A stretch of 64,000 nucleotides of DNA from Rhodanobacter sp. FW102-FHT14D07 (GCF_043950725.1 NZ_CP170721.1:613636-677635); one strand, 5' to 3'. Counted from the stretch's first letter, positions 2,520-59,766 are shown. A program made the numbers and translations. Notes: a model not told the origin generated them from the letters alone.

Positions 2520-2530
2520 CCGCGACAACG

Positions 2531-2557
2531 AAAAGGGCCGCGGTTTCCCGCGGCCCC
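2531..2557 (-). terminator. Rho-independent terminator downstream of tsf
   Basis: GGGCCGCGG-TTTC-CCGCGGCCC hairpin (2536-2557). On the minus-strand transcript it is followed by CUUUUCGUU (complement of 2531-2535 and beyond). Confidence 0.55.
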
Positions 2558-2684
2558 TGGTTCGAAGCACCCGCTCTTTCTGAAAGTCCGGCCATGGCGA
2601 GGGCATGGATGCCCGAGGTGAGGCAACGCAGGAGCGGTTGCCCGATGGCCGGTCTTTGCCGTCAGGGATGACGGGTACTTCGGA

Positions 2685-3566: not shown

Positions 3567-3665
3567 CGGTAGTTCTCCAATGCTTGGATGGCGCGACGGC
3601 AAGCAAACGCCGTCACGCGTTGATCTCGGCAGCCTGGCGGCGGTCGGCGACCGCCGCCTCGGCGC

Positions 3666-4526
3666 TTACTTGGCGGGCGCGCCTTCGTTGCGCGGGCCAC
3701 GGCCGCCGTCGCGACCGCCGTCGCGGCGCGGCGCGGACTTGCGCGGGGCAGCCTCGCGGCGCGGGCGATCGACCTTGGCCACCGGGTTGCCTTCCTCGTC
3801 CAGCTCGACGAAGTCGTTGCCGTCGCCCTGGGCGGCGGCCGGCGCGGCGGCCTTGCCTTCGAGGATCGAGTCGGCGGCGGCGCGGGCATACAGCTGGATC
3901 GCGCGGATCGCGTCGTCGTTGCCCGGGATGGCGTAGTCGACCAGCTCCGGGTTGTAGTTGGTGTCGACCACGGCGATCACCGGGATGCCGAGCTTCTTGG
4001 CTTCCTGCACGGCGATGTCTTCGTGGCCGATGTCGATCACGAACAGCGCGTCGGGCAGGCGGTTCATGTCCTTGATGCCGCCCAGCGAGGCCTGCAGCTT
4101 GTCGCGCTCGCGGCGACGGGCCAGCACTTCGTGCTTGACCAGCTTGTCGAAGCTGCCGTCGGTCTCGGCTGCTTCCAGCTCCTTCAGGCGCGAAACGGAC
4201 TGCTTCACGGTGCGGAAGTTGGTCAGCATGCCGCCGAGCCAGCGCGAGGTGACGAACGGCATGCCGGCGCGGGCAGCCTCTTCGGCCAACGGCTCGCGGG
4301 CCGAACGCTTGGTGCCGACGAACAGGATGGTGCCGCGCTTCTGCGCCAGGCCCGACAGGAAATTCATCGCGTCGGTGAACAGCGGCAGGGTCTTTTCGAG
4401 ATTGATGATGTGGATCTTGCCGCGGGCACCGAAGATGTACGGGGCCATCTTGGGATTCCAGTAACGGGTCTGATGACCGAAATGGACGCCGGCTTCCAGC
4501 ATCTGACGCATGGTGACTTGTGCCAT
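3666..4526 (-). CDS. rpsB: 30S ribosomal protein S2, with basic/Gly-rich C-terminal tail
   Basis: [46 protein letters not shown]... matches S2. It lies upstream of tsf as in the conserved rpsB-tsf operon. Confidence 0.95.
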
Positions 4527-4841
4527 GGGTGTCGCTCCGATTGTCGGTTCCCTCGAGAAGGAACCTGGGGGTTGGGACCTCCACGCATCCCCGGCTTCGA
4601 CCGCGACTGGCCCGATTTTGACGGTGGGCGAGGCGCGGCACCCCGAAGGCGGTGCCGATGCGTGTGTGGCGTTGGTTTGGGTGTTGTACCGCTGGGCGTT
4701 ACAATCCCGGCTCGCTTTGCGTGGATCGACTCCCGCTCGGGAGGCATCAGCCCTGCAAAACTCCGAAATTGTAGCCGGTACGCCGGCGGTGCGGCAAGTC
4801 TCTGGATTTCAAGGAGTTCTGTCGCCACATGAGTGGAATCC

Positions 4842-5606
4842 ATGGCCATTACCCTGAAATCTCCCGAAGACCTTGAAGGCATGCGCGTCGCCGGCAAGCT
4901 GGCTGCCGAAGTGCTGGCCATGCTCAAGGACTACGTCAAGCCCGGCGTCACCACCGAGGAGTTGGACCGCCGCGCCTACGAGCACATCGTCAACGTGCAG
5001 AAGGCGATTCCCGCCAACGTCGGCTATCACGGCTTCCCCAAGACCCTGTGCACCTCGGTCAACCACGTGATCTGCCACGGCATCCCGAGCGAGGGCAAGG
5101 TGCTCAAGGACGGCGACATCGTCAACCTCGACGTCACCGTGATCAAGGACGGCTGGCACGGCGACACCAGTCGCATGTACGTCGCCGGCACCCCGTCGGT
5201 GCTGGCCAAACGGCTGGTGGATACGACTTTCGAGGCGATGATGCGCGGCATCGAGGCGGTGCGTCCCGGCGCCACGCTTGGGGATATCGGCCACGCCATC
5301 CAGCAGCATGCCGAGGCGGCCGGTTTCAGCGTGGTCAAGGAGTACTGCGGCCACGGCATCGGCAAGGTCTATCACGACGAGCCGCAGGTGCTGCATTACG
5401 GCAAGCCCGGCACCGGCGTCGAGTTGAAGAAGGGCATGACCTTCACCATCGAGCCGATGATCAACGCCGGCAAGCCGCAGACGCGCCAGATGCCCGACGG
5501 CTGGACCGTGGTGACCAAGGACCATTCGCTGTCCGCCCAGTGGGAACACACCCTGGCGGTGACCGACGACGGCTTCGAGATCCTCACGCCCTGGCCGGAT
5601 GCGTGA
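4842..5606 (+). CDS. map: Methionine aminopeptidase type I
   Basis: MAITLKSPEDLEGMRVAGKLAAEVL...HGIGKVYHDEPQVLHYG...EHT is MetAP-I with its metal ligands. It diverges from rpsB as in E. coli. An alternative start at 4833 is possible. Confidence 0.92.
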   Translation: MAITLKSPEDLEGMRVAGKLAAEVLAMLKDYVKPGVTTEELDRRAYEHIVNVQKAIPANVGYHGFPKTLCTSVNHVICHGIPSEGKVLKDGDIVNLDVTVIKDGWHGDTSRMYVAGTPSVLAKRLVDTTFEAMMRGIEAVRPGATLGDIGHAIQQHAEAAGFSVVKEYCGHGIGKVYHDEPQVLHYGKPGTGVELKKGMTFTIEPMINAGKPQTRQMPDGWTVVTKDHSLSAQWEHTLAVTDDGFEILTPWPDA

Positions 5607-5732
5607 AGCAGGAGTGAGTGGGGAGGAGTGAGAAAAGAGAGCCGGACGCGCGGCGCCGGCGCCGGATGCCATGCAGACATGGCAGACTGCCTTCTCTCAT
5701 TCCGCACTCCTCTCCACTCACTTCTCGCTCCA

Positions 5733-8366
5733 ATGAATTCAGCGCTCCCTCCCTTGCCGCGCCTGCCCGTGGCAGTGCCGCGCTCCGGCGTTTCGGCCGA
5801 GGCGCGGCGGGCGTTGCGGCAGTTGCTGGAGGATGTGGATCGCGGGTTGGCTACGGCGTTTCGCGACGGCATGGATGCCAGTGCGTTGGCGCGGCGGCGC
5901 GGCGAGTCGGTGGCGCGGGTGGTTGCGCATGTGTGGGCAGCCTGCCTCGGTGAGGTAGCCGGCGCGGCGCTGTTCGCGATTGGCGGCTTTGGCCGCGGCC
6001 TGCTGTTTCCGTACTCGGATGTGGACCTGCTGGCGCTGGCGGCGGCACCCGAGCCTGCGCGCCTGCGGGCACTGGAGCAGTTCTTCGCTACCTTGTGGGA
6101 CATCGGCCTGAAAGTGGGCCACGCCGTGCGCGAACCAGCGCAATGCCGGGCGCTGGCCGCGCAGGACGCCAGCGTATTCACCAGCCTGCTCGACGCGCGA
6201 CGGCTGACCGGCGATCCGGCCTTCGATGCGCAACTGCGGGGCATCGTTGACGACCCGGCGTTGTGGCCGCCGCGCGAGTACCTCGCCGCCCGGCTGGCCG
6301 AGCGCAACGCGCGGCACGCCCGTTACGACGACACTGCCTACAACCTCGAACCGAACCTCAAGGACGGGCCCGGCGGCCTGCGTACGCTCGACTCGCTGCG
6401 CTGGATGGGGCGACGCCTGGCGCACGCGGACGGGTTGTCGGGGATGGTCGCCGAGGGGCTGCTCGATCCGGCCGAGCAAGCCCAGCTGGAACAAGCCGAA
6501 TCGACGCTGCGCCGTTACCGCTATGCCCTGCATCTGGAAGCGGGACGGGCCGAGGAGCGGCTGCTGTTCGACTATCAGCAGGCGCTGGCCGCACGCCTGG
6601 GATTCCAGGACGAGCACGAGAAGAACCTCGGCGTCGAACAGTTCATGCAGGGCTACTACCGCGCAGCCAGCCAGGTCGAGCGGCTAGGCGTGCAGGTGGC
6701 CGAGCGCTTCGAGGAGATGCTGGAGCCTCCCGCGGCGGAGCAGCCGGTGGGCGACGATTTCGTGCGCTACGGCGCGCGCCTGGCCGCGCGCGATCCGGAA
6801 TTGTTCATGCGCCGGCCCGCGGCGCTGGTGGAGATTTTCATCGCCCGGCTGGAGCAGTCCGGCGTGCTGGGCTTCAGTGCCGACACCATGCGCCGCATCC
6901 ATCAGGCGACCGACGCCCATGGCGCGGCGCTGGCCCGGGACGAGGAGGTGCTGGCCGCGTTCCTGCGCCTGTTGCGGCGAGGTGCGCCGGCGGTGGAGGC
7001 GTTGTGGCGGATGAACCGGCACGGCCTGTTGGCGGCGATCCTGCCGGCGTTCGGCAAGGTGTTCGGGCGCATGCAGTACGACCTGTTCCATGTCTACACG
7101 GTCGACGAACACACCTTGCGCGTGTTGCGCAACATGGCGCGCTTCGCCGAGCCGGCGGCACGGGGCGAGTTCCCGCTTGGCTGCGAGATCTGGGCCATGC
7201 TGCCCAAGCCCGAGGTGCTGCTGCTGGCGGCGTTGTTCCACGACATCGCCAAGGGTCGCGGCGGCGACCATTCGGTGCTGGGCGAACAGGATGCGCGGGA
7301 TTTCTGCACGCGCCTGGGGCTCCCCTCCGGCGACGTCGAACGGGTCGCCTGGCTGGTGCGCCATCACCTGCTGATGAGCACCACGGCGCAACGCCAGGAC
7401 ATCACCGATCCCGAGGTGGTGCACCGCTTCGCCGAGACGGTGGGCGAGCGGGAGCAGCTCGGCCAGCTCTACCTGCTGACCATTGCCGACATCACCGGCA
7501 CCAGCCCGCGCCTGTGGAACAGCTGGAAGGATCGCCTGCTGGCCGATCTCTGCACCAGCACCCGCCATGCCCTGCGCAGCGACGTCGAGTTGCCGCGCGA
7601 CGCCGGCGTGCGCGTGCGCAAATGCAGCGCGCAGGCGCTGGCGCGGCTGCAGGAGGATGGCTTCGACGAAGCCCGGGTGCGGCAGGTCTGGGGGGATTTT
7701 CCGCAACTCAGCTTCCTGCGCCATCGGCCCGAGCAGATCGCGTGGCAGACCGCGGCGATCCTGCGCGCGCAGGGTGCGGTGCCGCTGGTCGCGGTGGAAC
7801 CGTTGTCGGTACGCGGCAGCACCGAGCTGTTCGTCTACACGCCCGATCGGGACGGCCTGTTCGCCACCGTGACGGCGATGCTGGATCGGCTGCGCTTTTC
7901 GGTGATGGAGTCGCGCATCCTCAGCTCGCCCACCGGCATGGCGCTGGATACCTTCCTGTTGCTCGAAGCCGACAGCCAGCAACCGGCCAGTCCCGCGCGT
8001 GCCGAAGAGTTGCAGCAGCGCCTGCAGCGCGCACTCGCGCAAGCGGTGGGCGTGCAGCCGAGCAAGCGCAGCATGTCGCGCCATCAGAAGCATTTCCAGG
8101 TGACGCCGAAGATCAGCTTCCACGCCGCCGGCGGCCGCACCCAGTTGGCATTGGCGGGGACCGACCGGCCCGGTCTGCTGGCGGCGGTGGCGCAGGTGAT
8201 GCTGAGCGAGGACGTACGCGTGCACGACGCACGCATCGCCACCTTCGGCGAGCGGGTGGAGGACTTCTTCCTGCTGACCGACCGCGCCAACGCGCCGCTC
8301 GATGCGCAGCACCAGCAGCGCCTGCTGCAGGCGTTGCTGGCGCGGATCGGTCCCGCGCGCGAGTGA
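5733..8366 (+). CDS. glnD: Bifunctional [protein-PII] uridylyltransferase/uridylyl-removing enzyme
   Basis: About 880 aa with a nucleotidyltransferase N-terminus, an HD domain (LLAALFHDIAKGRGGDHSVLGEQDA) and two C-terminal ACT-like repeats. It follows map as in many gammaproteobacteria. The start is taken at MNSALPPLP; the track ORF begins at 5628. Confidence 0.9.
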   Translation: MNSALPPLPRLPVAVPRSGVSAEARRALRQLLEDVDRGLATAFRDGMDASALARRRGESVARVVAHVWAACLGEVAGAALFAIGGFGRGLLFPYSDVDLLALAAAPEPARLRALEQFFATLWDIGLKVGHAVREPAQCRALAAQDASVFTSLLDARRLTGDPAFDAQLRGIVDDPALWPPREYLAARLAERNARHARYDDTAYNLEPNLKDGPGGLRTLDSLRWMGRRLAHADGLSGMVAEGLLDPAEQAQLEQAESTLRRYRYALHLEAGRAEERLLFDYQQALAARLGFQDEHEKNLGVEQFMQGYYRAASQVERLGVQVAERFEEMLEPPAAEQPVGDDFVRYGARLAARDPELFMRRPAALVEIFIARLEQSGVLGFSADTMRRIHQATDAHGAALARDEEVLAAFLRLLRRGAPAVEALWRMNRHGLLAAILPAFGKVFGRMQYDLFHVYTVDEHTLRVLRNMARFAEPAARGEFPLGCEIWAMLPKPEVLLLAALFHDIAKGRGGDHSVLGEQDARDFCTRLGLPSGDVERVAWLVRHHLLMSTTAQRQDITDPEVVHRFAETVGEREQLGQLYLLTIADITGTSPRLWNSWKDRLLADLCTSTRHALRSDVELPRDAGVRVRKCSAQALARLQEDGFDEARVRQVWGDFPQLSFLRHRPEQIAWQTAAILRAQGAVPLVAVEPLSVRGSTELFVYTPDRDGLFATVTAMLDRLRFSVMESRILSSPTGMALDTFLLLEADSQQPASPARAEELQQRLQRALAQAVGVQPSKRSMSRHQKHFQVTPKISFHAAGGRTQLALAGTDRPGLLAAVAQVMLSEDVRVHDARIATFGERVEDFFLLTDRANAPLDAQHQQRLLQALLARIGPARE

Positions 8367-20752: not shown

Positions 20753-23497
20753 TCAGTGCAGCCGCCGGTGGATCAGCGGCACGAACAGGTCCACCACGAA
20801 GCCGTCATGGTCCGAGACGCCGATCGCCCGCGTCCAGTCGCTGGCATTGGCGGCGTCGTCGACGGTCTGCGCCGGCGCGTCGAGGTCGGCACGGCCGAAC
20901 TGCATGCGCAGGAAGCGCAGCCGTGCCGGCACGTTGAGCAGGGCGTGGTCCAGCACCTGGAAGGTCGGCACGGTGCGCCCGGGGTTGCCGCTGCCGGCCC
21001 TGGTGTAACCCTGGATCTCGCCGAAGTTCTGCGTGTACAGGAACGAGTAGCGATCGTCGGGTGGCACCGTGTTCACCGCGTTCCACAGCGCCGGCTGCAC
21101 GATATTGTGGCCGAGCTTGAGCAGGTTCTGGTTGTCGTCGTAGCGGCCGGCCACCAGGTTCACCACGTCGGTCCAGCCATCGGTGAACTGGTAGGCATTG
21201 AAGTCGCCCACCACCAGCAGCGGCATGCGCGGATCGGCCTGCTGCAGCGCCTGCACCTGGCTGGCCAGCGATTTTGCCTGCAGGAAACGCTTTTCCCGAT
21301 CACGCTCCGCGGCGGCGGTATTGTCGTCGACGTTCGAGCGCGCCTTCATGTGCACGGCAATCACGTGGAAACGCGTGCGGCCTGCCTGCGCGGTGAGCAG
21401 CAGCGGCGGGTGGTCGTGGATGAAGGCGGTGTGGCCGTCGTCGTCCCAGGTTTCGCCGGCGGCGAGTTGCTGCACCGAGAGCACCTGCACGTGGTCGCGG
21501 CGCACCAGGAATCCGACGTTGATGCCGCTGGGATCGTGGCCGGGCAGCAGGTAAGCGTCGTACGCCACGCCATAGTCGGCAAGAATCTGCGTAGCCAGGC
21601 CCTGCAGCAGCGGCCGGGTTTCCACTTCCTCCACCGACAGCACGTCGGGCAGCTGCAGCACGCTGCCGACATAGCTGGACAGGCGGCGGGTCTTCAGCGC
21701 GACGGCGTCCGGCGTGGGCTCCTTGCTCCCGCCGCTGCAGGTGTAGGTGGTGTCGAACACGCTGTCGCAGAAGCGCTCCATGTTGAACGCGCCGATGCGC
21801 AGCGCCAGCAGCGGGGTGGGCGAGACCGGCCGTGGTATCGGCGCGGCGTACGCCAGCCGGAACTGCGTCGGGATGAAGGTGTAGGCGCCGAAGTCGTAGG
21901 AGATCACGCCCTCGGCCCGGAACGTGCTGCCGGCGTTGAACGGCGTGTTCAGCGGCACCGCACCGAAGTCGGCAGTGTTCATCTTGAACACTTCCGGGTT
22001 GCCGCTCCAGTTGGGCAGGTCCACGCCCGCAGGCACCGGCACGCCGAACACCACGCCGGGCTGGCGCAGCGAGCGCCGGCCATTGGCGGTGATGCTGACC
22101 TCCGCATACGGTTCGCTGCTGAAACGCTTGTTGCCGGTGTTGATCATGCCGTGATCGATGCGCACACGCATGCTCATGAAGCACTGGAAATTGGTGGTGC
22201 CGCAGGAGAGCTGGTCCGGATCGGGCGAGGGCGTGCGCCGGTCGAACACGACGGCGCGCGGCAGGCGCACGTGGCGGCCGACCACGCTTATCGTCGGGTT
22301 CTTCAACTCGGTGAGGCCGTAGTAGTCGTCCACCACCGCCGCGACGTCCACCGCCTCGCCCACGCTTACCGTCGGTGCGGCGTTGGTGAACACATACACG
22401 CCATTGGACGTCAGCGGGCTGGCGTCGGCGCGCGCGTCGGGCGTCTGCATGGTGAAGCCCAGCGGGCCCACTGCGGTGACCACGTTGCCGTAGGTCAGCA
22501 CCGACTTGCCGAGCAGGGCCGCCCGCTGCCCGCTGCCGTTGATCTGCCAGATCTCCGCCTGCACCGGGATGTCGTAGTGGATGGTGCCGATGGCGGTGGC
22601 GTCGCCCAGCGCCACGCCGTCGCCGGGATCGCTCAGCGTGACGCTGAAGTCCTTGTCGTCGGCCGGCGTGGAGCGCCCATGCACGACCACGTTGAAGCTG
22701 GCCTGGGTCTCGCCCGCGGCGATGGTGAGGGTAGTGTCGAGCGCTTCGTACTCCACGCCCGCGGTGGCGCTGCCGTTGGCGGTGGCCACGTGCACGCTGG
22801 TGCCGCCGCTCGGCGCCGGTTCATTCATGGTGATGGTGAACGGCATCGCCACGTCGCTGGCGCCGTGCACGCTGATGCTGGCGTCGGCAATCGACAGCGA
22901 CGGGCCCATGGCCACGCAGGTGCTGGCGCTGTTGTGCGGCTGGGTCGGGCTCACGGTGACGAAATCGGCGCTGTTGTCGCCGGAGTTCTGTGGCAGGCCA
23001 GCCGCGGTCTGCCGCCGCTGGTAGCCTTGGTCGATGTTGCTGCTGCCCAGCGAGGCCAGCGGCGTGCCCGCCTTGTAGGCCGAACCGGTGCTGAGGCCCA
23101 CTTGGTCGACGATGTTGCCGTCGGCGTCGAGCAGGGCCAGGCCGCCGGTGTCGGTAACGCCGGTGGCGTAGGTGAGATCGCCCGGCACGCTGCCGGAGTA
23201 GCCGCCGCTGGCGCTGTTGGTCAGCAGCAGGTGGCAGCCCGACGCCAGTTGCGTGCCGGCGGGGAAGGTAAGCCGCGTGCCGATCGTGCCGCTGGCGTTG
23301 GAGGCGTTGAACTTGTACGCGGACAAGTCAATCGCCGCAGGGCCGGCGTTGAACAGTTCGACGAACTCGTCGTTGCCGCCGGCGGGGCCGCGAACCCGGA
23401 ACTGGTCGATGCTGACGTCGGCAGCCTGTGCGGCGAACGTCGAGGCGATGCCGGCCAGCAGCAGCCACAGGCCGCGTTGCGCGAGCTTTGCGAACAT
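20753..23497 (-). CDS. Secreted multidomain extracellular nuclease of the endonuclease/exonuclease/phosphatase (EEP) family; ExeM/NucH-like
   Basis: 914 aa. It has an N-terminal signal peptide (MFAKLAQRGLWLLLAGIASTFAAQA), a lamin-tail domain (NDEFVELFNAG), a Calx-beta-like domain (SVHVATANGSATAGVEYEALDTTLTIAAGETQASFNVVVHG) and a C-terminal EEP nuclease (LLVVGDFNAYQF..., GVSDHDGFVVDL). Confidence 0.85.
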   Translation of the reverse strand: MFAKLAQRGLWLLLAGIASTFAAQAADVSIDQFRVRGPAGGNDEFVELFNAGPAAIDLSAYKFNASNASGTIGTRLTFPAGTQLASGCHLLLTNSASGGYSGSVPGDLTYATGVTDTGGLALLDADGNIVDQVGLSTGSAYKAGTPLASLGSSNIDQGYQRRQTAAGLPQNSGDNSADFVTVSPTQPHNSASTCVAMGPSLSIADASISVHGASDVAMPFTITMNEPAPSGGTSVHVATANGSATAGVEYEALDTTLTIAAGETQASFNVVVHGRSTPADDKDFSVTLSDPGDGVALGDATAIGTIHYDIPVQAEIWQINGSGQRAALLGKSVLTYGNVVTAVGPLGFTMQTPDARADASPLTSNGVYVFTNAAPTVSVGEAVDVAAVVDDYYGLTELKNPTISVVGRHVRLPRAVVFDRRTPSPDPDQLSCGTTNFQCFMSMRVRIDHGMINTGNKRFSSEPYAEVSITANGRRSLRQPGVVFGVPVPAGVDLPNWSGNPEVFKMNTADFGAVPLNTPFNAGSTFRAEGVISYDFGAYTFIPTQFRLAYAAPIPRPVSPTPLLALRIGAFNMERFCDSVFDTTYTCSGGSKEPTPDAVALKTRRLSSYVGSVLQLPDVLSVEEVETRPLLQGLATQILADYGVAYDAYLLPGHDPSGINVGFLVRRDHVQVLSVQQLAAGETWDDDGHTAFIHDHPPLLLTAQAGRTRFHVIAVHMKARSNVDDNTAAAERDREKRFLQAKSLASQVQALQQADPRMPLLVVGDFNAYQFTDGWTDVVNLVAGRYDDNQNLLKLGHNIVQPALWNAVNTVPPDDRYSFLYTQNFGEIQGYTRAGSGNPGRTVPTFQVLDHALLNVPARLRFLRMQFGRADLDAPAQTVDDAANASDWTRAIGVSDHDGFVVDLFVPLIHRRLH

Positions 23498-30271: not shown

Positions 30272-30896
30272 GTTTTTCCGATATTCGATAAAAAATGCTT
30301 GCGCGTGGTTGTTAATAGGTGTAACGTCCGCAGCCCTCGCCTTTTGGCGACCATCAGATAAAAGAGTTTCCATGTCGTTCCGCATAACCCAGATGAGCAC
30401 ACCATGCACGTCGCAGTATTGCCGCGATGCAGGCCTGTTCATGCGCGGCGAATGGCTCGACTTGGCAATCGTCTGCCGATAATCGACTGATCCCTTTGCG
30501 GAGATCGGTCACCCCGATCTCCCGAGGCAACGCGAACGCCCTCGGGTCGCCAACCCCGGGGGCGTCTTGTTTTTGCCGTTCGCAGGGGATGCGCATGCAT
30601 CGAACAAGGTTTGCGGAATCCGTTTCGCCCTGAGGCATCCGGTCAGCCATGGCCGAGGCAGGGGCGCAGCTGCGAAGGCGCTTGCGCGCTGCGTCCCGGT
30701 GCTTCGGCGCGGGCTGTGCGAGAAACGGATCACCACGTATCGGGCAACCATGCCCGCACCTATTGCCGGTTGGTGACAGCCGGCAATCGGGAACATCGAA
30801 CCGACCGGCTCCAGCGGCATGGGCTCAAGCCCCATCCGGTGCGCGCGGCTTTGCCGGCGGCGTATGCCGGGGTCTGCCGGGCGGTGTTCCACAACG

Positions 30897-30968
30897 ACGA
30901 CGTTGGCTCAGCGGTAGAGCGGCAGGTTCGTTCCTGCAAACGCCGGTTCGATTCCGGCACGTCGGCCA
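30897..30968 (+). pseudogene. tRNA-like sequence 1: canonical D- and T-arms, 6-nt anticodon loop, weak acceptor stem; probable tRNA pseudogene/relic
   Basis: Hand fold: D-arm GCTC-AGCGGTA-GAGC, T-arm GCCGG-TTCGATT-CCGGC. The anticodon stem GCAGG/CCTGC encloses only TTCGTT. The acceptor pairs CGACGT/ACGTCG (6 bp, position 1:72 A-G) and ends GCCA. Not verified computationally. Confidence 0.35.
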
Positions 30969-31041
30969 CTGGATAGCTCAGAGGGGTAGAGCATCGGTCT
31001 TGTAAACCGAGTGTCGCGGGTTCGACTCCCGCTCCAAACCA
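30967..31041 (+). tRNA. tRNA-Thr(UGU)-like sequence 2 with intact D-, anticodon and T-arms but a poorly paired acceptor stem and no full CCA; possibly non-functional
   Basis: U8A9, D-arm GCTC-AGAGGGGTA-GAGC, anticodon arm TCGGT-CTTGTAA-ACCGA (34-36 = TGT), T-arm GCGGG-TTCGACT-CCCGC. The 5' strand CACTGGA and the 3' strand TCCAAAC pair over only 4 bp. Its 5' end overlaps the 3' end of tRNA-like 1 by 2 nt. Confidence 0.4.
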
Positions 31042-31438
31042 TGACCTGTCACGTCATGACCAGGAACGAAAGTTCCGACCAGGAAACGCCTCGCGCGGCG
31101 CCTGGCCTGCAAGCCACGGAGGGTTTGCGGATCAGGCAAGGCGGCGGTGGCGGGGCCGGGCCCACGTCCCGACAGCGGGCAAGCGGATATCGAAGCGATT
31201 GTCTTGCAGGCATTCGCCGGAATATCCGGTTCCCCGCCAAGGCACGTCGGCTTCGCCCCATTATCGTCAGGAGGCGTTTCCGCCTTATTCGCTTTAATCG
31301 GCGCATGACGTCGATTATCCCGCGAGGGAGGGGCTTTTGCGGCCCGATTATCTGCAATGTTAATGCGTCGTACCGATCCGGCGACGCAGTCGGCTTATCC
31401 GACGGATCGAAACAAGGATTGACGGAAGGAGTATCAAC

Positions 31439-32563
31439 ATGTTCTGGATCAAGCAAATCGTGATCGGCGACGGCGAGCGCGGCTTGCTGTATCGCAACCG
31501 TCGTTTCCAGCGCGTACTGCCGCCGGGCGTGTACCACTTTGTCGACCCGTGCAAGCGTATCGCGGCCAGCGTGCACAACCTGGCCAAGCCCGAGTACACC
31601 GGCGCCGACACTGACGTGCTGATGGCGCTGATGGATGGTGCGCTGGCCGAATGCTTCGACGTGGCCGACATCGGCACGCAGCAGGTTGGCCTGGTGCTCA
31701 AGAACGGCAAGCTGGAGGACGTGCTGGCACCGGGTACGCGCAAGCTCTACTGGAAGGGCCTGGTGCCGGTCGAGGTGCAGGCGGTGTCGCTGGCGGAAAC
31801 GCTGGAAGTCGATGCGCGCGTGGCCAGCCGACTGCGCCAGCTGGGCGTGCTCGGCAAGGTCGCGGTGACGGTGGACGTGCCGACGGAGTCGGCAGGCCTG
31901 CTGTTCATCGACGGCAAGCTGGTGCGTACGCTGGCACCGGGGGCCTGGGCGTTCTGGAATTTCCAGAAGAACGTGGCGGCCGAGGTGATCGAGCTGCGCG
32001 TGCAATCGCTGGAGGTGTCGGGCCAGGAACTGCTGACCCGCGACAAGGTGAGCCTGCGGGTGAACCTGGCCGCCAGCCTGCGCGTGACCGATCCGGTCGC
32101 CGCGCGCACCAAGGTGGTCAAGTACGGCGACTACGTCTATCGCGAGCTGCAATACGGCTTGCGCAAGGCGGTGTCCGGCAAGACGCTGGACGAGCTGCTG
32201 GGCGACAAGGCTTCGCTGGACGCGGACATCTTTGCCTACGTGCGCGGCCGTGTCGTTGAGCTGGGCGTGGAAGTGCTGGGCGTGGGCGTCAAGGACGTGA
32301 TCCTGCCGGGCGAGATGAAGGACATCCTGAACAGCGTGGTGCAGGCGGAGAAGGCGGCCCAGGCCAACGTGATCCGCCGGCGCGAGGAGTCGAACGCCAC
32401 CCGTTCGCTGCTCAACACCGCGCGGCTGATCGAGGAGAGCCCGGTGCTGATGCGTCTGAAGGAGCTGGAGGCTCTGGAGAAGGTCACCGAGAAGATCGAC
32501 AAGCTCACCGTGTTCGGCGGCCTGGACGGCGTGCTGAACCAGTTGGTGAGCCTCAAGCAGTAA
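31439..32563 (+). CDS. SPFH/Band-7 (stomatin/HflKC-like) domain protein with an unusual N-terminal region that triplicates the SPFH entry beta-hairpin motif
   Basis: The C-terminal half (VSLRVNLAASLRVTDPVAARTKVVKYGDYVYRELQYGLRKAVSGKTLDELLGDKASLDADIF...VKDVILPGEMKDILNSVVQAEKAAQANVIRRREESNATRSL) is a classical SPFH fold. The N-terminal 190 aa carry three repeats of the pattern GLL/LVL...G+...LxPG...(F/Y)W (ERGLLYRNRRFQRVLPPGVYHF; QVGLVLKNGKLEDVLAPGTRKLYW; SAGLLFIDGKLVRTLAPGAWAFW). No clear transmembrane helix. Confidence 0.8.
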   Translation: MFWIKQIVIGDGERGLLYRNRRFQRVLPPGVYHFVDPCKRIAASVHNLAKPEYTGADTDVLMALMDGALAECFDVADIGTQQVGLVLKNGKLEDVLAPGTRKLYWKGLVPVEVQAVSLAETLEVDARVASRLRQLGVLGKVAVTVDVPTESAGLLFIDGKLVRTLAPGAWAFWNFQKNVAAEVIELRVQSLEVSGQELLTRDKVSLRVNLAASLRVTDPVAARTKVVKYGDYVYRELQYGLRKAVSGKTLDELLGDKASLDADIFAYVRGRVVELGVEVLGVGVKDVILPGEMKDILNSVVQAEKAAQANVIRRREESNATRSLLNTARLIEESPVLMRLKELEALEKVTEKIDKLTVFGGLDGVLNQLVSLKQ

Positions 32564-32617
32564 CCTCGCGGCGATCGCACGGAAGCGCTCGCCGCGATCC
32601 ATTCAAGGAAAGAAGAG

Positions 32618-33838
32618 ATGAGCAACCAACAGTACGAGTTTCTGCATGCCGAAGGCAGCGCCACGCCGATCAAGGGCTGGGTGCATGGCGTGCCGCTGGA
32701 AGATGCCGCGAGGCAGCAGCTGCGCAACATCGCCATGCTGCCGTTTGTCGGCCCGTGGGTCGCGGTGATGCCCGACGTGCACCTGGGCAAGGGCGCGACG
32801 GTCGGTTCAGTCGTGCCCACGCGGGGCGCGGTCATCCCGGCTGCGGTCGGCGTGGACATCGGCTGCGGCATGGCCGCGGTACGCACCACGCTGCGCGCCA
32901 GCGACCTGCCGGACAACCTGGCCCCGCTGCGTTCCAGCATCGAGCGCGGCGTGCCGGTCGGCAACGGCCGTGGTGGCGACCATCACAAGCTGCCGGACAG
33001 CATTGAGACGCAACTGGCGCAATCCGGGCTGGTCGCGCGGCTGGAAGCAATCAAGGCGAAGCATCGCAAGATCCGCACCGACAAGCTGGACCGGCAGATC
33101 GGCACGCTGGGCGGTGGTAACCACTTCATCGAGGTCTGCCTCGACGAATCGGACGCCGTGTGGGTGATGTTGCACTCGGGTTCGCGCGGCACCGGCAACC
33201 TGATTGGCAGCTACTTCATCGAGCGGGCGCGCGAGGAGCTGGCGCAGCGCGTGCTGGGTTTCGACCTGCTGGACAGAGACCTGGCCTTCTTCATGGAAGG
33301 CGAAGCATTGTTCGATGACTACGTGGAAGCGGTGTCCTGGGCGCAGGACTACGCCCAGGCCAACCGCGAGGCGATGATGGCGCGGGTGTTGGCCGAGATG
33401 CGCCACCGGCTGCCGAAGTTCCAGTTGGAAAAGCTGGCGGTGAACTGCCACCACAACTACGTGCAGAAGGAAACGCACGGTGGCGAGGACTTGCTGGTGA
33501 CCCGCAAGGGTGCGGTGAGCGCGCGGGTCGGCGAGCTGGGCATCATCCCGGGCAGCATGGGTACGTGCAGCTACATCGTGCGTGGCAAGGGCAATCCGGA
33601 AAGTTTCCACAGCTGCAGCCACGGCGCGGGCCGGGTGATGAGCCGTACCGCGGCGCGCCAGCGGATCACGCTGGCGCAGCATCGGGAGGCCACCGCCCAT
33701 GTCGAATGCCGCAAGGACGCGGCGGTGATCGACGAATCGCCGGCGGCGTACAAGTCGATCGACGCGGTTATGGCGGCGCAGTCCGACCTGGTCGACGTGG
33801 TGCACACGCTGCGCCAGGTGCTGTGCGTGAAGGGATGA
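32618..33838 (+). CDS. rtcB: RtcB-family 3'-phosphate/5'-hydroxyl RNA ligase
   Basis: 406 aa with the full set of RtcB signatures: GGGNHFIEV, HSGSRGTG, CHHNY, SCSHGAGRVMSR. It lies 55 nt downstream of the SPFH gene on the same strand. No rtcA, rtcR or archease gene is present in the window. Confidence 0.9.
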   Translation: MSNQQYEFLHAEGSATPIKGWVHGVPLEDAARQQLRNIAMLPFVGPWVAVMPDVHLGKGATVGSVVPTRGAVIPAAVGVDIGCGMAAVRTTLRASDLPDNLAPLRSSIERGVPVGNGRGGDHHKLPDSIETQLAQSGLVARLEAIKAKHRKIRTDKLDRQIGTLGGGNHFIEVCLDESDAVWVMLHSGSRGTGNLIGSYFIERAREELAQRVLGFDLLDRDLAFFMEGEALFDDYVEAVSWAQDYAQANREAMMARVLAEMRHRLPKFQLEKLAVNCHHNYVQKETHGGEDLLVTRKGAVSARVGELGIIPGSMGTCSYIVRGKGNPESFHSCSHGAGRVMSRTAARQRITLAQHREATAHVECRKDAAVIDESPAAYKSIDAVMAAQSDLVDVVHTLRQVLCVKG

Positions 33839-33919
33839 AGCCGGCGCCGCTCCGCGAGGGGCGGCGTCTTTTCGCGCGTGCCCCGGCGCGCCGGCTGCGG
33901 GATAATGTCCCGTTTTCCG

Positions 33920-36235
<2,316 letters not shown>

Positions 36236-54964: not shown

Positions 54965-55039
54965 GGGCGGTTAGCTCAGCGGTAGAGCACTACCTTGACA
55001 TGGTAGGGGTCACAAGTTCGATCCTTGTACCGCCCACCA
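54965..55039 (+). tRNA. tRNA-Val (anticodon GAC); integration site of the downstream prophage
   Basis: Hand fold: acceptor GGGCGGT/ACCGCCC, D-arm GCTC-AGCGGTA-GAGC, anticodon arm CTACC-TTGACAT-GGTAG (34-36 = GAC), T-arm ACAAG-TTCGATC-CTTGT, discriminator A, encoded CCA. The integrase gene starts 26 nt downstream. Confidence 0.9.
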
Positions 55040-55064
55040 ATTATATCAAGCACTTAGGCCACCT

Positions 55065-56150
55065 TCAATGGGTGGTCTTTTTGCTTTCTAGCACGCAACT
55101 AACACGCAGCGCGGTCATGTATCCGTCGATGGCTGCCGCGGCTTGGCCTAGGTAGTCGGGCCGATACCGCGCATAGACTTCCGTCTTGCCGCTGTACGCC
55201 TTGTGCCCGAGAAACCCCTGTATCTCCGCCTCTGGCACGCCAGACGCGCGCAGGTGCGTCGCCATCGTGTGTCGGATGACCTTGGGCACGGTTCCGGGCG
55301 GGAGGCCCGCAGCGGTCCGCATTTTGCGCCAGGCGGTCTTGAAGCTGGCAATCTCTCTGCCGCGCCACTGCACCAGCGGACCGTCGCTCGCCTGCTCGAT
55401 CCACGGCAACAGGAAGTCGCAGATGGGCACCGTGGGACGGTACTTCTTGGTCTGGCGCCGGCCGGGCGGATTCTGGATCAGTAGACGCCGGTCCAGGTCG
55501 GCGAACGATCGGTGCATGCCCAGGATCGCCTCCGGGCGGGCCAGCGTGCCGTAGGCGAGCGCGAGGTACATCCGTTCATGCGGCGATTCGGCGGCACCCC
55601 ACAAGGCCGCGGATTCCTCGACGGATAGCGTCTGCTCGCGGGCTTCACCGTCCTGCCACGGGATGATGAACGGGACGGTATCAATCTCGCCCTCGCGGTA
55701 GGCGCGGTTCAGCGCCGACTTGCCCACGGTCAGGACGCGCTTCACGTACCCATCGGACAGCGGCGGCTTGCGCTTGGCTTTGAGCCACTCGGCGAACTCG
55801 CGCTGCCTTGCCGGCGTCACTTCCGCCACGGTGGCGCCGCAGAAGAAATCCGACCAGTAGGCCAGCGCAATGCGGGCCATTTCAGCCGATGCCGATGCTT
55901 CGGCGTGCTGCTGGTAATAGCGGACCAAGACAAGCTCCAGCGCCGTGTCGTGCGCCTCCTGTTTGCCTACCCGCCCATACTTGGCGAACCACTCCCACAG
56001 CTTTAATTTTGCGGCTTGAAGATCGTCTGTGCCAAGCGATGCGCGTCGCGTCTGCCGAGTGTTGGCGTCGTACCACGTGCGGCACCACTGCGCGGAGCCT
56101 GGCCGCTTGGTGAGCCAGTAGTCGCCGATTTCGCCGGTACGTTCCTGCAT
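55065..56150 (-). CDS. int: Tyrosine-type site-specific integrase (phage integrase family)
   Basis: 361 aa. The C-terminal catalytic region carries R...HxxR...Y (VIRHTMATHLRASGVPEAEIQGFLGHKAYSGKTEVYARY). Confidence 0.9.
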   Translation of the reverse strand: MQERTGEIGDYWLTKRPGSAQWCRTWYDANTRQTRRASLGTDDLQAAKLKLWEWFAKYGRVGKQEAHDTALELVLVRYYQQHAEASASAEMARIALAYWSDFFCGATVAEVTPARQREFAEWLKAKRKPPLSDGYVKRVLTVGKSALNRAYREGEIDTVPFIIPWQDGEAREQTLSVEESAALWGAAESPHERMYLALAYGTLARPEAILGMHRSFADLDRRLLIQNPPGRRQTKKYRPTVPICDFLLPWIEQASDGPLVQWRGREIASFKTAWRKMRTAAGLPPGTVPKVIRHTMATHLRASGVPEAEIQGFLGHKAYSGKTEVYARYRPDYLGQAAAAIDGYMTALRVSCVLESKKTTH

Positions 56151-56335
56151 GACTCCAGATACTCATTCAAGATCGCGTCGGTATAGCGGATGATGCGCTG
56201 CCCGATGCGGTAGGGGTGGATGCGGCCAGCCACTCGCTCGCGCATCAGTGACGCCTTGCTGATTCCCAAGCGTACTGCAGCCTCGGCTTCGGTGAACCGT
56301 TCCTCCGCGTCCACGATGTGCGGATTTGGGCTCAT
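56003..56335 (-). CDS. xis: AlpA/Xis-type phage excisionase-like DNA-binding protein; 3' end overlaps int out of frame, so the true stop is uncertain
   Basis: Residues 14-56 (FTEAEAAVRLGISKASLMRERVAGRIHPYRIGQRIIRYTDAIL) match the AlpA/MerR-superfamily excisionase HTH. The HTH lies at 56167-56296, immediately upstream of the int start. Confidence 0.6.
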   Translation of the reverse strand: MSPNPHIVDAEERFTEAEAAVRLGISKASLMRERVAGRIHPYRIGQRIIRYTDAILNEYLESCRNVPAKSATTGSPSGQAPRSGAARGTTPTLGRRDAHRLAQTIFKPQN

Positions 56336-57410
56336 GCAACGCTCCTCAGTGACTCGAACAGGTCGCCTTGCGGCTCGCGCGGAGCCTTCGCCACGATGTG
56401 CAAGGCGTCCCCGTTAGAGCGGTACTGCCAAGGTCTGCACGTGCTGCGCAGGGTGAAATAGTGGTAGTGCGCTTCCTGCTGGTACGGTGGCGGCAGGGCG
56501 CAAGCGACGTGGACATAGGGCGGGCCCTTTTCTTGCGCCCAGTCCTCGTCGTCCAACTCGATGACACGGACGACGGTCATCGGGCCAATGCCGCCGCCGA
56601 ACATCATCCAGTCCTCGTCAGGGCGGCTCATGTATCCGCGGCTCCAATGGCGCACCTTGTCGCCGACCTCGATCATGCGAACAACTCCCCTTGCGTCGTC
56701 TCCCGCATCGCCGCCGCCTCGCGCCGGTACTTCGCCGCCCAGTCCAGGTAATCCCAGAAGCTGTGCCAGTACCACGGGAGCGTGGCAGCACGGAGCCGAC
56801 AAACGCGGGCTTGTGCGAGGTAGACGCGGGCCAAGTGGAGTTTGAAGGCGCGGTCGCTCACACCACCCCCATCAACGCCAGATCCACGTCGTCCACGCTG
56901 TTGCGCAACTGGTGCCGCGCAATGTTCAGCTCGTCGGCAATCTCCGCCCGGCCAGCATCGCCCGGGAAGTTGCGCAGCACCGCGTGCACGGCTCCGCGTT
57001 GATCGCGCCGGTACAGCCGGTACAGAACGCTGCCTGAGTCCTGCGGGATGCGCGCCCAGCAGAAGCGGTTGCGGTTATGGGGCATGCGGCGTGTGAAGGG
57101 CTTCATTCCTCCACCTCCCCGCTATCGAAGCCCCATTCGGTCATGAGTTCGGATGCGCGATTCGTGATGTTGTCGCACGTCTGCCGTGCCATACTCGCCG
57201 ACTTGCAATCAAGCGAATTCCCACTTTCCGGGAACACGCTTTCTGGGTAGTAGCCGCGCACCTCTCCTATCGCCTGCATCAGCGCGTTGGCGCACAAGGT
57301 GTCGTGATCCAGCGAACGGGCAAGATAATCCTCTCCCTGTGTCGCCGGGTGATAAGCGACTCCCGGCAGAACTGTTCCGTCATCTTCGCGTGCTACATAC
57401 GTCCTGAGTC

Positions 57411-57662
57411 TCATTCCCCATCCTCCCGCTCGTCCTCGACCCTCAGTTCAAGGAACTTCGCCCCGCGAGCGTCATAGACGCGAACGCTGTGGTTGTCGTC
57501 GTCGGTCCACTCCACCGCTCCAAATGGCACGGATTCCGATCCCGTCCCGAAGGAAAGATGGTGCACTGCGACCGCATACGCGATGTCTCGCAGGCACGCC
57601 TCCACGCGATCGGGTGGAATCTTTACGAGGTCGCCGATGGCGTCGATTCTGTACGCGATCAT
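57411..57662 (-). CDS. Small prophage protein of unknown function (83 aa), translationally coupled
   Basis: MIAYRIDAIGDLV...DEREDGE. ATGA overlaps link it to the upstream and downstream ORFs. Its C-terminus and the following ribosome-binding site come from the repeated GGGAGGATGGGGAATGA junction. Confidence 0.45.
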   Translation of the reverse strand: MIAYRIDAIGDLVKIPPDRVEACLRDIAYAVAVHHLSFGTGSESVPFGAVEWTDDDNHSVRVYDARGAKFLELRVEDEREDGE

Positions 57663-57927
57663 TCCCCATCCTCCCGCGCGCTGTTGTGCATGTCCACACG
57701 CGTCGGATCAAGCGTGCGCAAATGATCCAGCAGCCAAGCGAAGTCGATGGCGTAGCAGCGCGTCCCGGAAGAGTTAGGCATATCCACTGCAACACTTACG
57801 ATGTCGCGGTCACCTCTTCGCGCATCCAGGAAGAGCGCAATGCGCTGTCCACTGTCGTCCGAGACGACTAAGGCATCCTTGTAGATACCGAAGTCGTAGT
57901 CACCGCGAAACTCTGCTTCAATCATGG
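57659..57927 (-). CDS. Small prophage protein of unknown function (about 89 aa)
   Basis: MIEAEFRGDYDFGIYKDALVVSDDSGQRIALFLDARRGDRDIVSVAVDMP...HNSAREDGE. The start is chosen at the Met 9 nt after GGGAGGA; the track ORF extends to 58108 and would overlap the upstream gene by 190 nt. Confidence 0.4.
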
Positions 57928-58376
57928 CTTCCATCCTCCCGCGCGCTGTTGTGCAGGTAGGCGGCGATCTTCTCGCCAAGCGAAAGCGCCTCGCCCCATG
58001 AAAGCTGGTCAACGCTTTGCGACTGCATGAAGGCGTAGCACCCCCGCAGCAGCGCATCCGCCGCAGCGAGCCGGGATTGCAGCTCGTCGCGCTCATTCCG
58101 CAGCGCATGCCATCCCGCTTCGGTGCCGGCGTCTAGTTGCGCTTGCAACCTCTCGTTCTCCGCCTCCAGCTCGCCCAGGCGGGCGCGGATGGTCGTTAGT
58201 TCTGACTCTTGGTCACGGGCGAGCGGCGCAAGCTTTTGGTGTACGGCTTCGTAATACCCGGCTTGGGCGCTGGTGCTAAAACCGGGGTGCGCCTGCATCA
58301 CCTGTTCAATCAGGGCATCCACACACGGCGACCTTGAATCCGCCACCGCCTTACTCACGTTCTCGTCCATCGTCAT
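57918..58376 (-). CDS. Prophage coiled-coil protein of unknown function (152 aa)
   Basis: The central region (LGELEAENERLQAQLDAGTEAGWHALRNERDELQSRLAAADALL) is coiled-coil. The C-terminal ...HNSAREDG is encoded by a 25-bp direct repeat shared with the next gene. Confidence 0.45.
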   Translation of the reverse strand: MTMDENVSKAVADSRSPCVDALIEQVMQAHPGFSTSAQAGYYEAVHQKLAPLARDQESELTTIRARLGELEAENERLQAQLDAGTEAGWHALRNERDELQSRLAAADALLRGCYAFMQSQSVDQLSWGEALSLGEKIAAYLHNSAREDGSHD

Positions 58377-59056
58377 TCCTCGGGCTGGGGCGGGGTCTGC
58401 ACAAACACTTGGTAATCTCCGTCCGGCAAGTCGCCCGCGTAATCGAAGTCCGTGTTGAGCATCGAATCAATGCCCTTCCACCGCTGCAGCGTGAGCGTGC
58501 CAACGCGAGTCCACCCCTCCGCCTGCGCGTTGCCGATGGCGCGGGTGAGCTTCTCTCCGAGTTGATAACAGGGCTCTGCATCTAGTCCCGTTTCATCTGT
58601 GCATTGCAGTTGCGCAATTACCTCCCGGATCGCCCCTACATCCACCGCCTGCGCATCTACTAAATACTGCGCTCGTGCAATCAGCTGTGTATGCCATGAC
58701 ATGTCGTCCATGTCTGGATCGCGAACTTCGCCTAAGCGTTCGGCGATCTGGAATATGGCGTCTTGCAAGGCATCCACCGCCTGCGCTGGCTGGGCGAGGT
58801 GGGCGTCGATGGCGTCGGCGGCCGCTTTGTGACGAGCCGCTCCCGCCGAGAGTGAGCCCGCTTTTGCTAACAGCACCTCCATTTTGCGATGCCAGTCCCG
58901 TACCTGCTCAAGCGTCATCTTCTCGGCCATGTCACTCTCCTTCGGCTGACGGATCATTTCGGCCGTGATCGCCCATCGGCATCCCTCGGTGTGACAGATG
59001 AAACCGGGGCTGATGTAGGGCATCTGCGCGCACCGGGCGCATGGCTTGGGTTGCAT
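58373..59056 (-). CDS. Prophage protein with N-terminal Cys4 zinc-ribbon-like motif, unknown function
   Basis: MQPKPCARCAQMPYISPGFICHTEGCRW... (CxxC...CxxxxC) followed by an acidic helical region. The start is taken at an internal Met of the 271-aa track ORF, leaving a 2-nt gap to the upstream gene. Confidence 0.4.
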   Translation of the reverse strand: MQPKPCARCAQMPYISPGFICHTEGCRWAITAEMIRQPKESDMAEKMTLEQVRDWHRKMEVLLAKAGSLSAGAARHKAAADAIDAHLAQPAQAVDALQDAIFQIAERLGEVRDPDMDDMSWHTQLIARAQYLVDAQAVDVGAIREVIAQLQCTDETGLDAEPCYQLGEKLTRAIGNAQAEGWTRVGTLTLQRWKGIDSMLNTDFDYAGDLPDGDYQVFVQTPPQPEE

Positions 59057-59058
59057 GG

Positions 59059-59766
59059 TCACTCTCCCTCGGGCTGGGTGGGTTGTTGGACGGCGATAAC
59101 TTTCAGCTCCATCGCCGCACCTACGGGCGCATTGAACGCATCGACGTTGGCCCACCGTTCGACCAATGAACGCGGTACGGGTATGCATCCATCCGGCACC
59201 CCGGCGGGTGACAGTGGCGCGTACCCACCAGCCTTGCCCTGCACTGTCCGCAAGTCCAGCACGTAGTCCCGCATTTCCGTCTTGTTGAGGCGCGGGCGCT
59301 CGCCGTCGATGATTGCCTGCAGGTCATCAGCCATCTGCGCCAACGTCGCCACCGCCTCACCCTGGCCCTGCGCGGCGAGGGCATTCGTGCAACCCAACCC
59401 GTTGTCGTCTAGTCCATCACACACGGCGTCGGCTGCCCGTCCGCATGCTGTGCAGCGCTCGGGTTTCACCTCATCCTGCGCGGCGAGGGCGGCAGATAGG
59501 GCGACGCGCATCGGCTCGCGCATGAGATCGACCGCGCCGGCAAGCAGGTGAAGGTCTGCGGCGATGTACGCGAGACACGCTCGCTCCACCATCTCATCCC
59601 CCACCCGCCCGCTGTCGGCTGGCTTGCTCAGGGTGTCGGCGTAGGCGCGCAACGCCGCAGCTGCACGATTCAGAACAATATTTTCTTCGAGCGTAATTGG
59701 GGCCACCAGCTCATCCAAATTCGTGGCTATTTTCCGCACTTCCTCGGCGGTGAATTTCTGGGTCAT
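59059..59766 (-). CDS. Prophage hypothetical protein (235 aa)
   Basis: MTQKFTAEEVRKIATNLDELVAP...; contains CTACGRAADAVCDGLDDNGLGC. No family recognised. Confidence 0.4.
   Translation of the reverse strand: MTQKFTAEEVRKIATNLDELVAPITLEENIVLNRAAAALRAYADTLSKPADSGRVGDEMVERACLAYIAADLHLLAGAVDLMREPMRVALSAALAAQDEVKPERCTACGRAADAVCDGLDDNGLGCTNALAAQGQGEAVATLAQMADDLQAIIDGERPRLNKTEMRDYVLDLRTVQGKAGGYAPLSPAGVPDGCIPVPRSLVERWANVDAFNAPVGAAMELKVIAVQQPTQPEGE

Follow-up and report, generated by a model that had tools for sequence, protein, structure and literature searches.

The SPFH-RtcB locus and its upstream RNA

Within a 64,000-nucleotide (nt) stretch of the genome of Rhodanobacter sp. FW102-FHT14D07 (NZ_CP170721.1:613636-677635; this whole stretch is hereafter the window, and positions are counted from its first nucleotide), a gene for a 374-amino-acid (aa) SPFH/Band-7 protein of the "slipin family" (31439-32563, plus strand) is followed on the same strand by a gene for a 406-aa RtcB RNA ligase (32618-33838), which joins 3'-phosphate or 2',3'-cyclic phosphate ends to 5'-OH ends. 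An initial annotation of the window had described a co-oriented pair with a 55-nt spacer; the open reading frames (ORFs) and their strand agree with that description, and the spacer is 54 nt. It had also placed two degenerate tRNA-like sequences immediately upstream. Two such units are present on the same strand (unit 1, 30897-30966; unit 2, 30970-31036), and both are aberrant, but they lie about 400 nt 5' of the SPFH start. As judged from sequence and covariation, they form the centre of a ~280-nt structured non-coding RNA, in which a leader hairpin precedes two tandem tRNA-shaped domains and two trailing hairpins follow them.

Both units exceed the 29-bit threshold of the Rfam tRNA model (unit 1, 51.3 bits, E 3e-9; unit 2, 54 bits, E 6e-10, model positions 4-67), and both have the D, anticodon, and T arms of a cloverleaf together with a conserved elbow, the D-loop and T-loop elbow nucleotides being invariant. 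The combination of a 7-bp acceptor stem, a discriminator/CCA end, and a 7-nt anticodon loop that marks a genuine tRNA is found in neither. ARAGORN labels unit 1 "tRNA-???" and assigns it a 2-base anticodon. This unit has a 6-bp acceptor stem with a mismatched first pair, canonical D and T arms, and an "anticodon" arm with a co-varying stem, whose loop has 6 nt here and 4-7 nt, often as GNRA, in relatives; covariation is present in its acceptor, D, and T stems, and its 3' end is a conserved N-CCA-C directly adjoining unit 2. Unit 2 is not called by ARAGORN. Its acceptor stem has only 4 bp (UGGA/UCCA) and no CCA follows, while the D stem does not vary, the T arm hardly varies, and the anticodon stem is 100% paired, with compensatory changes at all five pairs. 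The tRNA-shaped domains keep their D-loop/T-loop elbows, and their acceptor or anticodon features are predicted to be non-functional.

The flanking elements, all on the plus strand, are similarly conserved. The leader (30813-30870) opens with CAGCGG and continues with hairpin A (30819-30835), which is supported by 97% pairing and compensatory changes at four of five pairs, and then with a long irregular helix (CCGGUGCGC...GCGUA-UG-CCGG, 30836-30870) that has CCGG-UGCGC on its 5' side, encloses a small hairpin, and is 92% paired and almost invariant. On the 3' side of unit 2 lie hairpin 3 (CAUGAC-CUGUCAC-GUCAUG, 31040-31058; 92% paired, five of five pairs compensatory, 33 loci), a GNRA-capped hairpin (GGAAC-GAAA-GUUCC, 31063-31076; 95% paired, two pairs compensatory), and a conserved block, CAGGAAACGCC (31080-31090). 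For the double cloverleaf itself, 95.1% of the cells in 33 strong tandem matches are paired, compared with 36-46% in slid controls, and compensatory changes are seen at 34 of 42 pairs. The covariation score was 0.547 (≤0.11 for slid controls) and was reached by none of 500 shuffles, to be read with the caveat that the alignment had been fitted to a covariance model.

Three further features of the RNA were considered. A candidate closing stem of the kind seen in Y RNAs (30883-30891 with 31082-31090) is 71% paired across 20 loci with unconvincing covariation; by eye, in Rhodanobacter, Pseudoxanthomonas, and Xanthomonas, the 5' flank of unit 1 pairs well with the GGAAACGCC block. The 7-nt loop of hairpin 3 (CUGUCAC, 31046-31052) resembles an anticodon loop in shape and reads CUUUCAC, CUGUUAC, or CUUCCAC in relatives, and the whole hairpin is deleted in one of them (L005). 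Inspection of the unit-2 anticodon against the loops of hairpin 3 and unit 1 revealed no complementarity or co-variation indicative of kissing.

Conservation of the module

A profile scan with the SPFH family, using one genome per species, yielded 80 loci, which belong to Gamma- and Betaproteobacteria and to a few other metagenome-assembled genomes, and a covariance model of the tandem element was searched 5' of the SPFH gene in 81 sources. A same-strand tRNA-like element occurs 200-600 nt 5' of the SPFH gene in 77 of these 81; the four exceptions are two truncated loci and two in which a tRNA is called slightly further upstream. Because of this conservation and the covariation described above, chance can be excluded as an explanation for the tRNA-like elements. 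RtcB is encoded near the SPFH gene in 53 of 80 loci, usually directly downstream and sometimes after one extra gene or upstream, so that the SPFH-rtcB pair, for which the initial annotation had proposed a conservation search, is not restricted to one lineage. Its status as a pair has to be modified nonetheless, since it is the tRNA-like RNA that invariably accompanies the SPFH gene, and RtcB is missing within reach in about a third of the loci. The constant core of the module across proteobacteria is therefore the tRNA-like RNA plus the SPFH protein, and RtcB is a frequent, non-obligatory component. RtcR (18 of 80 loci), HNH endonuclease (14), RtcA (13), and the nucleotidyltransferase RlaP (11) are also found near the SPFH gene.

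Several variants of the module stand out among the relatives. At the rluF-lysC locus of enterobacteria (L089, Escherichia coli STEC639, 3969-6422; L090, Citrobacter freundii, 2460-6413), a sigma-54 promoter, a reduced leader RNA, the slipin, and an RlaP-type nucleotidyltransferase occur with no adjoining RtcB. The reduced RNA consists of the leader hairpin and a single T arm, without a cloverleaf, and RtcR adjoins this variant only in Citrobacter. Of 5,426 complete E. coli genomes, 1,625 (~30%) carry at least 80% of the E. coli slipin-RlaP unit. Long tRNA arrays lie 5' of the proximal tRNA-like element in at least 13 related loci (L034, 1542-4755; L077, 1881-4830; L060, 1578-4605; L023, L031, L032, L036, L038, L045, L047, L056, L062, and L065), with up to 25 genes, and up to 24 array genes in L034, and an HNH gene stands between array and tRNA-like element in 14 loci. 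A conserved protein of ~315 aa with no Pfam match is encoded between or beside SPFH and RtcB in several loci (L040, 7278-8228; L041, 3281-4228; L029, 8463-9476; L049, 4299-5225) and could belong to the module as well.

The SPFH protein and the RtcB ligase

The reading of the first gene product as an SPFH/Band-7 protein is supported by a Pfam Band_7 domain at aa 147-317 (E 6e-28). When the protein is compared with itself, aa 9-48, 78-118, and 147-187 are mutually 38-41% identical, and an AlphaFold model built from 60 diverse homologues (mean predicted local distance difference test [pLDDT] 90.4) shows a five-stranded beta unit three times in succession, at aa 4-47, 73-117, and 142-185. The third of these is the start of the SPFH domain proper and continues into its alpha/beta core. 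The N-terminus thus consists of two extra copies of the protein's own SPFH entry beta unit, and the threefold repeat that the initial annotation had seen, with the advice to check it by structure prediction, is borne out by both approaches. Family members of 500-790 aa (P0123, P0140-P0143, P0193, P0216, and P0248) match the query in two to four stretches, which suggests that they may carry further N-terminal beta repeats.

In the predicted model, the SPFH domain (aa 142-290) is followed by a long C-terminal helix (aa 291-352). To our knowledge, all solved SPFH proteins oligomerise via this helix. No transmembrane segment was found in the protein, whose Kyte-Doolittle maximum over 19 residues (1.48) is below transmembrane level, and the model opens with beta strands, without an N-terminal helix or hairpin anchor; the earlier statement that an evident membrane anchor is absent holds on both grounds. 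A soluble SPFH protein would be unusual in a superfamily otherwise known as membrane cages. Foldseek places the core nearest to human stomatin (E 8e-15), with HflK/C, QmcA, prohibitin, and erlin ranking after it, and the NCBIfam HflK equivalog model gives 42 bits against a cut-off of 159. The nearest homologues are Rhodanobacter proteins with 90-98% identity labelled "slipin family protein," and the family as a whole, which comprises 570 clusters at 50% identity (E ≤ 1e-30), is publicly annotated as "regulator of protease activity HflC" or "slipin."

The second gene product matches the RtcB domain over the whole Pfam model (E 1.4e-123), in line with its initial description as a complete ligase. 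The D-x-x-C metal-site motif, GNHF, HSGSRG, HN, and the guanylyl-histidine motif HGAGR align with Pyrococcus horikoshii RtcB (PH1602) and Thermus thermophilus TTHA1785; because all catalytic motifs align with these solved enzymes, the RtcB of this locus is very likely active.

Upstream control

An attenuator-like block (30497-30584, plus strand) lies about 390 nt 5' of unit 1 and is sharply conserved in 20 Xanthomonadales loci, at a fixed distance from the tRNA-like pair and always at ~800-950 nt 5' of the SPFH gene. It comprises a strong hairpin, GGAGATCGG-TCACC-CCGATCTCC (30500-30522), and a terminator-like GC-rich hairpin followed by a T-run (30536-30565), together with a possible anti-terminator, the segment CCCGAGG, which is able to pair with the terminator-like hairpin through the latter's 5' arm. 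Complementary flanks (GCGAACG, 30532-30538; CGTTCGC, 30577-30583) co-vary in two lineages (L019 and L020/L022). No Rfam family matched the block. It has the anatomy of an attenuator, with a putative function to match, and this leader may replace RtcR/sigma-54 control in the Xanthomonadales version of the module.

No credible sigma-54 -24/-12 site was found in 30272-31438, and a sigma-70 promoter scan of the upstream region found none. In RtcR-type loci of Burkholderia, Pseudomonas, Undibacterium, and Acidovorax, by contrast, an unmistakable sigma-54 promoter (e.g., CTGGCACGCCCCTCGCT) stands 5' of the tRNA-like element, and RNA, SPFH, RtcB, RlaP, and RtcA are arranged there as a single unit driven by RtcR. 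The motif order of the leader at 30813-30870 recurs after the sigma-54 promoter in these loci and in E. coli/Citrobacter. Since the promoter precedes the tRNA-like RNA in RtcR-type loci, RNA, SPFH, and RtcB probably share a single transcript. Of the features of a canonical Rtc operon, RtcR and RtcA are absent from the window and a sigma-54 site is absent from the Xanthomonadales version of the module, whereas all three are present in relatives.

Genomic setting

As initially described, the module lies between two-component genes and a queA-tgt-yajC-secDF cluster: Pfam identifies a HisKA_3 kinase and a LuxR-type response regulator on its 5' side and queA, tgt, yajC, secD, and secF on its 3' side. 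The response regulator ends at 30271, leaving a 1.17-kb ORF-poor gap before the SPFH start, in which no ORF has host-like third-codon-position GC (GC3) or codon composition; in the equivalent gap of eight related records, the sole gene call is a 45-aa minus-strand one (L083). The 45 proteins of the window, scanned with Pfam, are otherwise products of ordinary core-chromosome genes (e.g., frr, pyrH, tsf, rpsB, thrS, infC, pheST, suf genes, and uvrB). RtcR, RtcA, RlaP, archease, PrfH, and Ro/TROVE are not among them, nor is an NfeD or FtsH partner, and tblastn of the window with RtcR, RtcA, RlaP, and HNH sequences from related loci gave zero matches, so the reported lack of the usual RtcB partners stands. 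The window also contains no tRNA array or HNH gene, and neither SPFH nor RtcB matched a PADLOC defence model.

The initial annotation had offered a small acquired islet as one explanation of the module. This finds no support as far as recent acquisition is concerned, because codon composition is host-like (GC3 of the module genes, 0.87-0.90), the family is absent from phages, and it is nearly absent from true plasmids, the nine plasmid records matched being mostly megareplicons or mislabelled chromosomes. No integrase adjoins the module. It lies between the response regulator and queA in Rhodanobacter and Dyella only, with different neighbourhoods in other genera, and has clearly relocated in the course of evolution. 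In these two genera queA-tgt (33878-36225), whose products modify tRNA anticodon position 34, is directly 3' of the module, a proximity that is confined to them and is probably coincidental.

Elsewhere in the window, a phage-type integrase gene on the minus strand (55065-56150) directly follows a tRNA-Val gene (54965-55039), and then come ~4 kb with a GC content of 0.60-0.62 (compared with ~0.67) without host-like ORFs; the region 54965-59500 is probably an integrated element. A 914-aa protein with lamin-tail, Calx-beta, and endonuclease/exonuclease/phosphatase domains (20753-23497, minus strand) is probably a secreted nuclease or phosphatase unrelated to the SPFH-RtcB module.

Proposed function and alternative explanations

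We propose that the locus is a chromosomal SPFH/tRNA-like RNA/RtcB module in which SPFH protein and RNA form a scaffold in the cytoplasm, comparable to Ro60/Y RNA, that serves RNA repair by RtcB, and we put the probability of this reading at roughly 0.55. The SPFH protein would oligomerise via its C-terminal helix, in the cytoplasm rather than on the membrane, and its duplicated N-terminal beta units would bind the tRNA-like RNA. The resulting particle would be a scaffold or tether by which the ends of broken tRNA or rRNA, or else enzymes that handle tRNA, are brought to RtcB (or RlaP), and RtcB would re-ligate these ends after nuclease or stress damage. In the Xanthomonadales version, the conserved attenuator-like leader would stand in place of RtcR control. 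A role in the RNA-damage response or in repair against ribotoxins had already been suggested in the initial annotation, and it fits both the published prediction discussed below and the placement of SPFH plus RNA inside RtcR/sigma-54/RtcB/RlaP/RtcA operons in Burkholderia, Pseudomonas, Undibacterium, and Acidovorax.

Several points weigh against this proposal. About 28 of the 80 loci have no RtcB nearby, and in E. coli/Citrobacter the SPFH protein is paired with the RlaP nucleotidyltransferase instead of RtcB; for both reasons RtcB cannot be obligatory. The net charge of the SPFH repeat region is near neutral and therefore gives no hint of RNA binding. Co-transcription of RNA, SPFH, and RtcB at this particular locus is argued from relatives, because no promoter is identifiable in the window. 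Expression of the RNA, its binding to the SPFH protein, and an effect of either on RtcB are predictions. Finally, deletion of paFlo8 (PA14_60630), an SPFH gene inside the rtcR-rtcB-rtcA locus of Pseudomonas aeruginosa PA14, gave no phenotype in assays of growth, virulence factors, motility, biofilm, and oxidative stress, with RNA damage lying outside these assays (PMC13086221).

The tRNA-like RNA could instead be a decoy or sentinel, that is, bait for anticodon nucleases (colicin E5/D-like, PrrC/RloC-like, or VapC-like), with an anticodon retuned by mutation to the local toxin; RtcB would re-seal the bait, or its cleavage would signal damage, while the SPFH protein would hold or protect the RNA. 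What makes this attractive is the loop of unit 2 (31000-31006), CUUGUAA with UGU as anticodon, which has 7 nt and keeps the Y-U-NNN-A-A frame of a tRNA while positions 34, 35, and 36 are near maximum entropy (1.87, 1.65, and 1.43 bits, compared with ~0 in the T loops). Within Rhodanobacter, where the SPFH proteins are ≥90% identical, the anticodon is UGU, GUU, CAU, or GUC, and three Stenotrophomonas maltophilia genomes have CUU, CCU, and CGU; in the variant relatives (L005, L081-L088, and L020-L022), the loop frame is constant and the rest of the cloverleaf hardly changes. However, an equal pattern could arise if the constraint on three unpaired bases were relaxed, and no nuclease gene is linked in the window. 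Moreover, the anticodon cannot be universally required, because in Burkholderia, Acidovorax, and Pseudomonas stable tetraloops replace the anticodon loops of both units and in E. coli only the T arm survives. We regard this decoy or sentinel model as the main rival of the scaffold proposal, but as rather unlikely. More doubtful still is a combination in which the SPFH protein closes into a vault-like cage in the cytoplasm, with the double-tRNA-like RNA and RtcB/RlaP inside it and the unit-2 anticodon as a rapidly re-programmable bait or sensor for anticodon nucleases. If it were true, such a cage would protect against ribotoxins as a decoy compartment that re-seals itself, and it might be the counterpart, in prokaryotes, of vault-type ribonucleoproteins; and if the turnover of the unit-2 anticodon is due to selection, it would link RNA repair to toxin-antitoxin or colicin arms races.

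The same anticodon turnover speaks against working tRNAs, spare or stress-related as in tRNA arrays, that are maintained by SPFH-RtcB: a different anticodon in close relatives with an identical body is incompatible with a fixed aminoacylation identity. Scores above the Rfam tRNA threshold, the full arrays of up to 25 genes just 5' in many related loci, and the conserved N-CCA of unit 1 would suit such tRNAs, whereas the conserved 4-bp acceptor stem of unit 2 without CCA, the 4-7-nt and often GNRA-type loops of unit 1, and the ARAGORN results (unit 1 flagged, unit 2 rejected) would not, and we consider this explanation very improbable. Only a very small chance, too, is given to an ordinary membrane-microdomain or protease-modulating SPFH protein of the HflK/C or stomatin-NfeD kind, whose adjacency to RtcB and to the tRNA-like sequences would be incidental or a relic of tRNA-gene integration. 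The resemblance of the core to stomatin and HflK/C, the public labels, and the differing neighbourhoods among genera are as expected for such a protein. Against it stand the lack of a transmembrane segment, the lack of an NfeD/FtsH partner in the window, an HflK score far below the cut-off, and the orientation and spacing to a co-varying tRNA-like RNA that are fixed in 77 of 81 sources, with a sigma-54 promoter 5' of that RNA in RtcR-type loci. An integration relic is likewise at odds with the lack of an integrase beside the module, the lack of phage matches, and the few, mostly megareplicon, plasmid matches.

Comparison with known systems

In its abstract, the 2016 analysis by Burroughs and Aravind in Nucleic Acids Research reportedly describes modules that combine SPFH/Band-7 proteins with "a novel tRNA-like molecule" and that could act as scaffolding cofactors. 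According to the parts of a preprint on YrlA structure that cite this work, RtcB is found in certain bacteria beside a Band-7 protein and a predicted, strongly tRNA-like non-coding RNA, b7a-tRNA, which was proposed to be functionally analogous to Rsr/YrlA and is stated there to be without experimental validation (bioRxiv 10.1101/312249). The initial annotation did not recognise the arrangement; it has, however, been described in that work, as cited in the preprint passages, and an SPFH gene within an rtc locus has been reported as well (PMC13086221). The present locus is a member of the kind predicted by comparative genomics in 2016, and its arrangement is not new. As the b7a-tRNA system is outlined in those passages, the locus shares its SPFH domain, an adjoining co-oriented RtcB, and an upstream tRNA-like RNA, and differs in being without RtcR, RtcA, and RlaP. 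Set beside the same outline, the locus adds the tandem double cloverleaf, the leader and trailer hairpins, the hypervariable second anticodon, and the attenuator-like block ~390 nt upstream. No functional study of the SPFH-RtcB pair was found in the open-access full text of PubMed Central and bioRxiv under several spellings.

The Salmonella rsr-yrlBA-rtcBA operon encodes the Ro60 orthologue Rsr, the Y RNAs YrlA and YrlB with a tRNA-like domain, RtcB, and RtcA, under RtcR/sigma-54 control. In both systems, RtcB is encoded together with a non-catalytic protein that is a known or proposed RNA-binding scaffold and with non-coding RNAs that mimic tRNA, and in relatives of the present locus the SPFH + RNA unit takes the slot of the Salmonella Ro60/Y-RNA operon behind an RtcR-dependent sigma-54 promoter. 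The protein, however, is an SPFH protein here and a TROVE/Ro60 protein in Salmonella, and the RNAs lie 5' of the protein gene, whereas the Salmonella Y RNAs lie between rsr and rtcB. Membership of the YrlA family (Rfam RF02553) was considered for the RNA and rejected, given a score of 21.1 bits against a threshold of 69 and no TROVE protein in the window. PaFlo8, the subject of a 2026 study (PMC13086221), is a candidate member of the subfamily; its position in an rtc locus is like that in the RtcR-type loci of Pseudomonas sp. 21 and Pseudomonas peli (L068 and L071), and its locus has both RtcR and RtcA, which are lacking in the window.

Compared with the stomatin, HflK-HflC, and QmcA cages, the SPFH protein of this locus is without a membrane anchor and an NfeD/FtsH partner and has two extra copies of the SPFH beta sub-domain. 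The eukaryotic vault combines a major vault protein, built of N-terminal beta repeats, an SPFH-like shoulder, and a cap helix, with a vault RNA and the TROVE protein TEP1. The likeness to it is architectural only, the repeats here being duplications of the protein's own SPFH N-terminal unit. Homology of these repeats to the major vault protein was rejected: a model of aa 1-146 alone (pLDDT 90.1) fails to retrieve that protein, its best structural matches (E about 0.1) being the N-terminal parts of SPFH domains, and the Pfam Vault repeat is unmatched by the full protein. In Anabaena, tRNA gene L-arrays with an HNH endonuclease are co-regulated with rtcB, in a paper that makes no mention of SPFH (PMC8421152). 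Such arrays recur in at least 13 loci related to ours and HNH genes in 14, whereas the window locus has neither.

Bacterial RtcB is widespread, and the module bears on its natural substrates and on its non-catalytic partners, be they Ro60/Y RNA or SPFH/tRNA-like RNA. Because about 30% of complete E. coli genomes carry the slipin-RlaP unit and PA14 is reported to have an SPFH gene in its rtc locus, the predictions made here can be tested in model organisms. Next to the Ro60/Y-RNA system, the SPFH/tRNA-like RNA family would represent a second, independent solution in which a scaffold is combined with a tRNA mimic.

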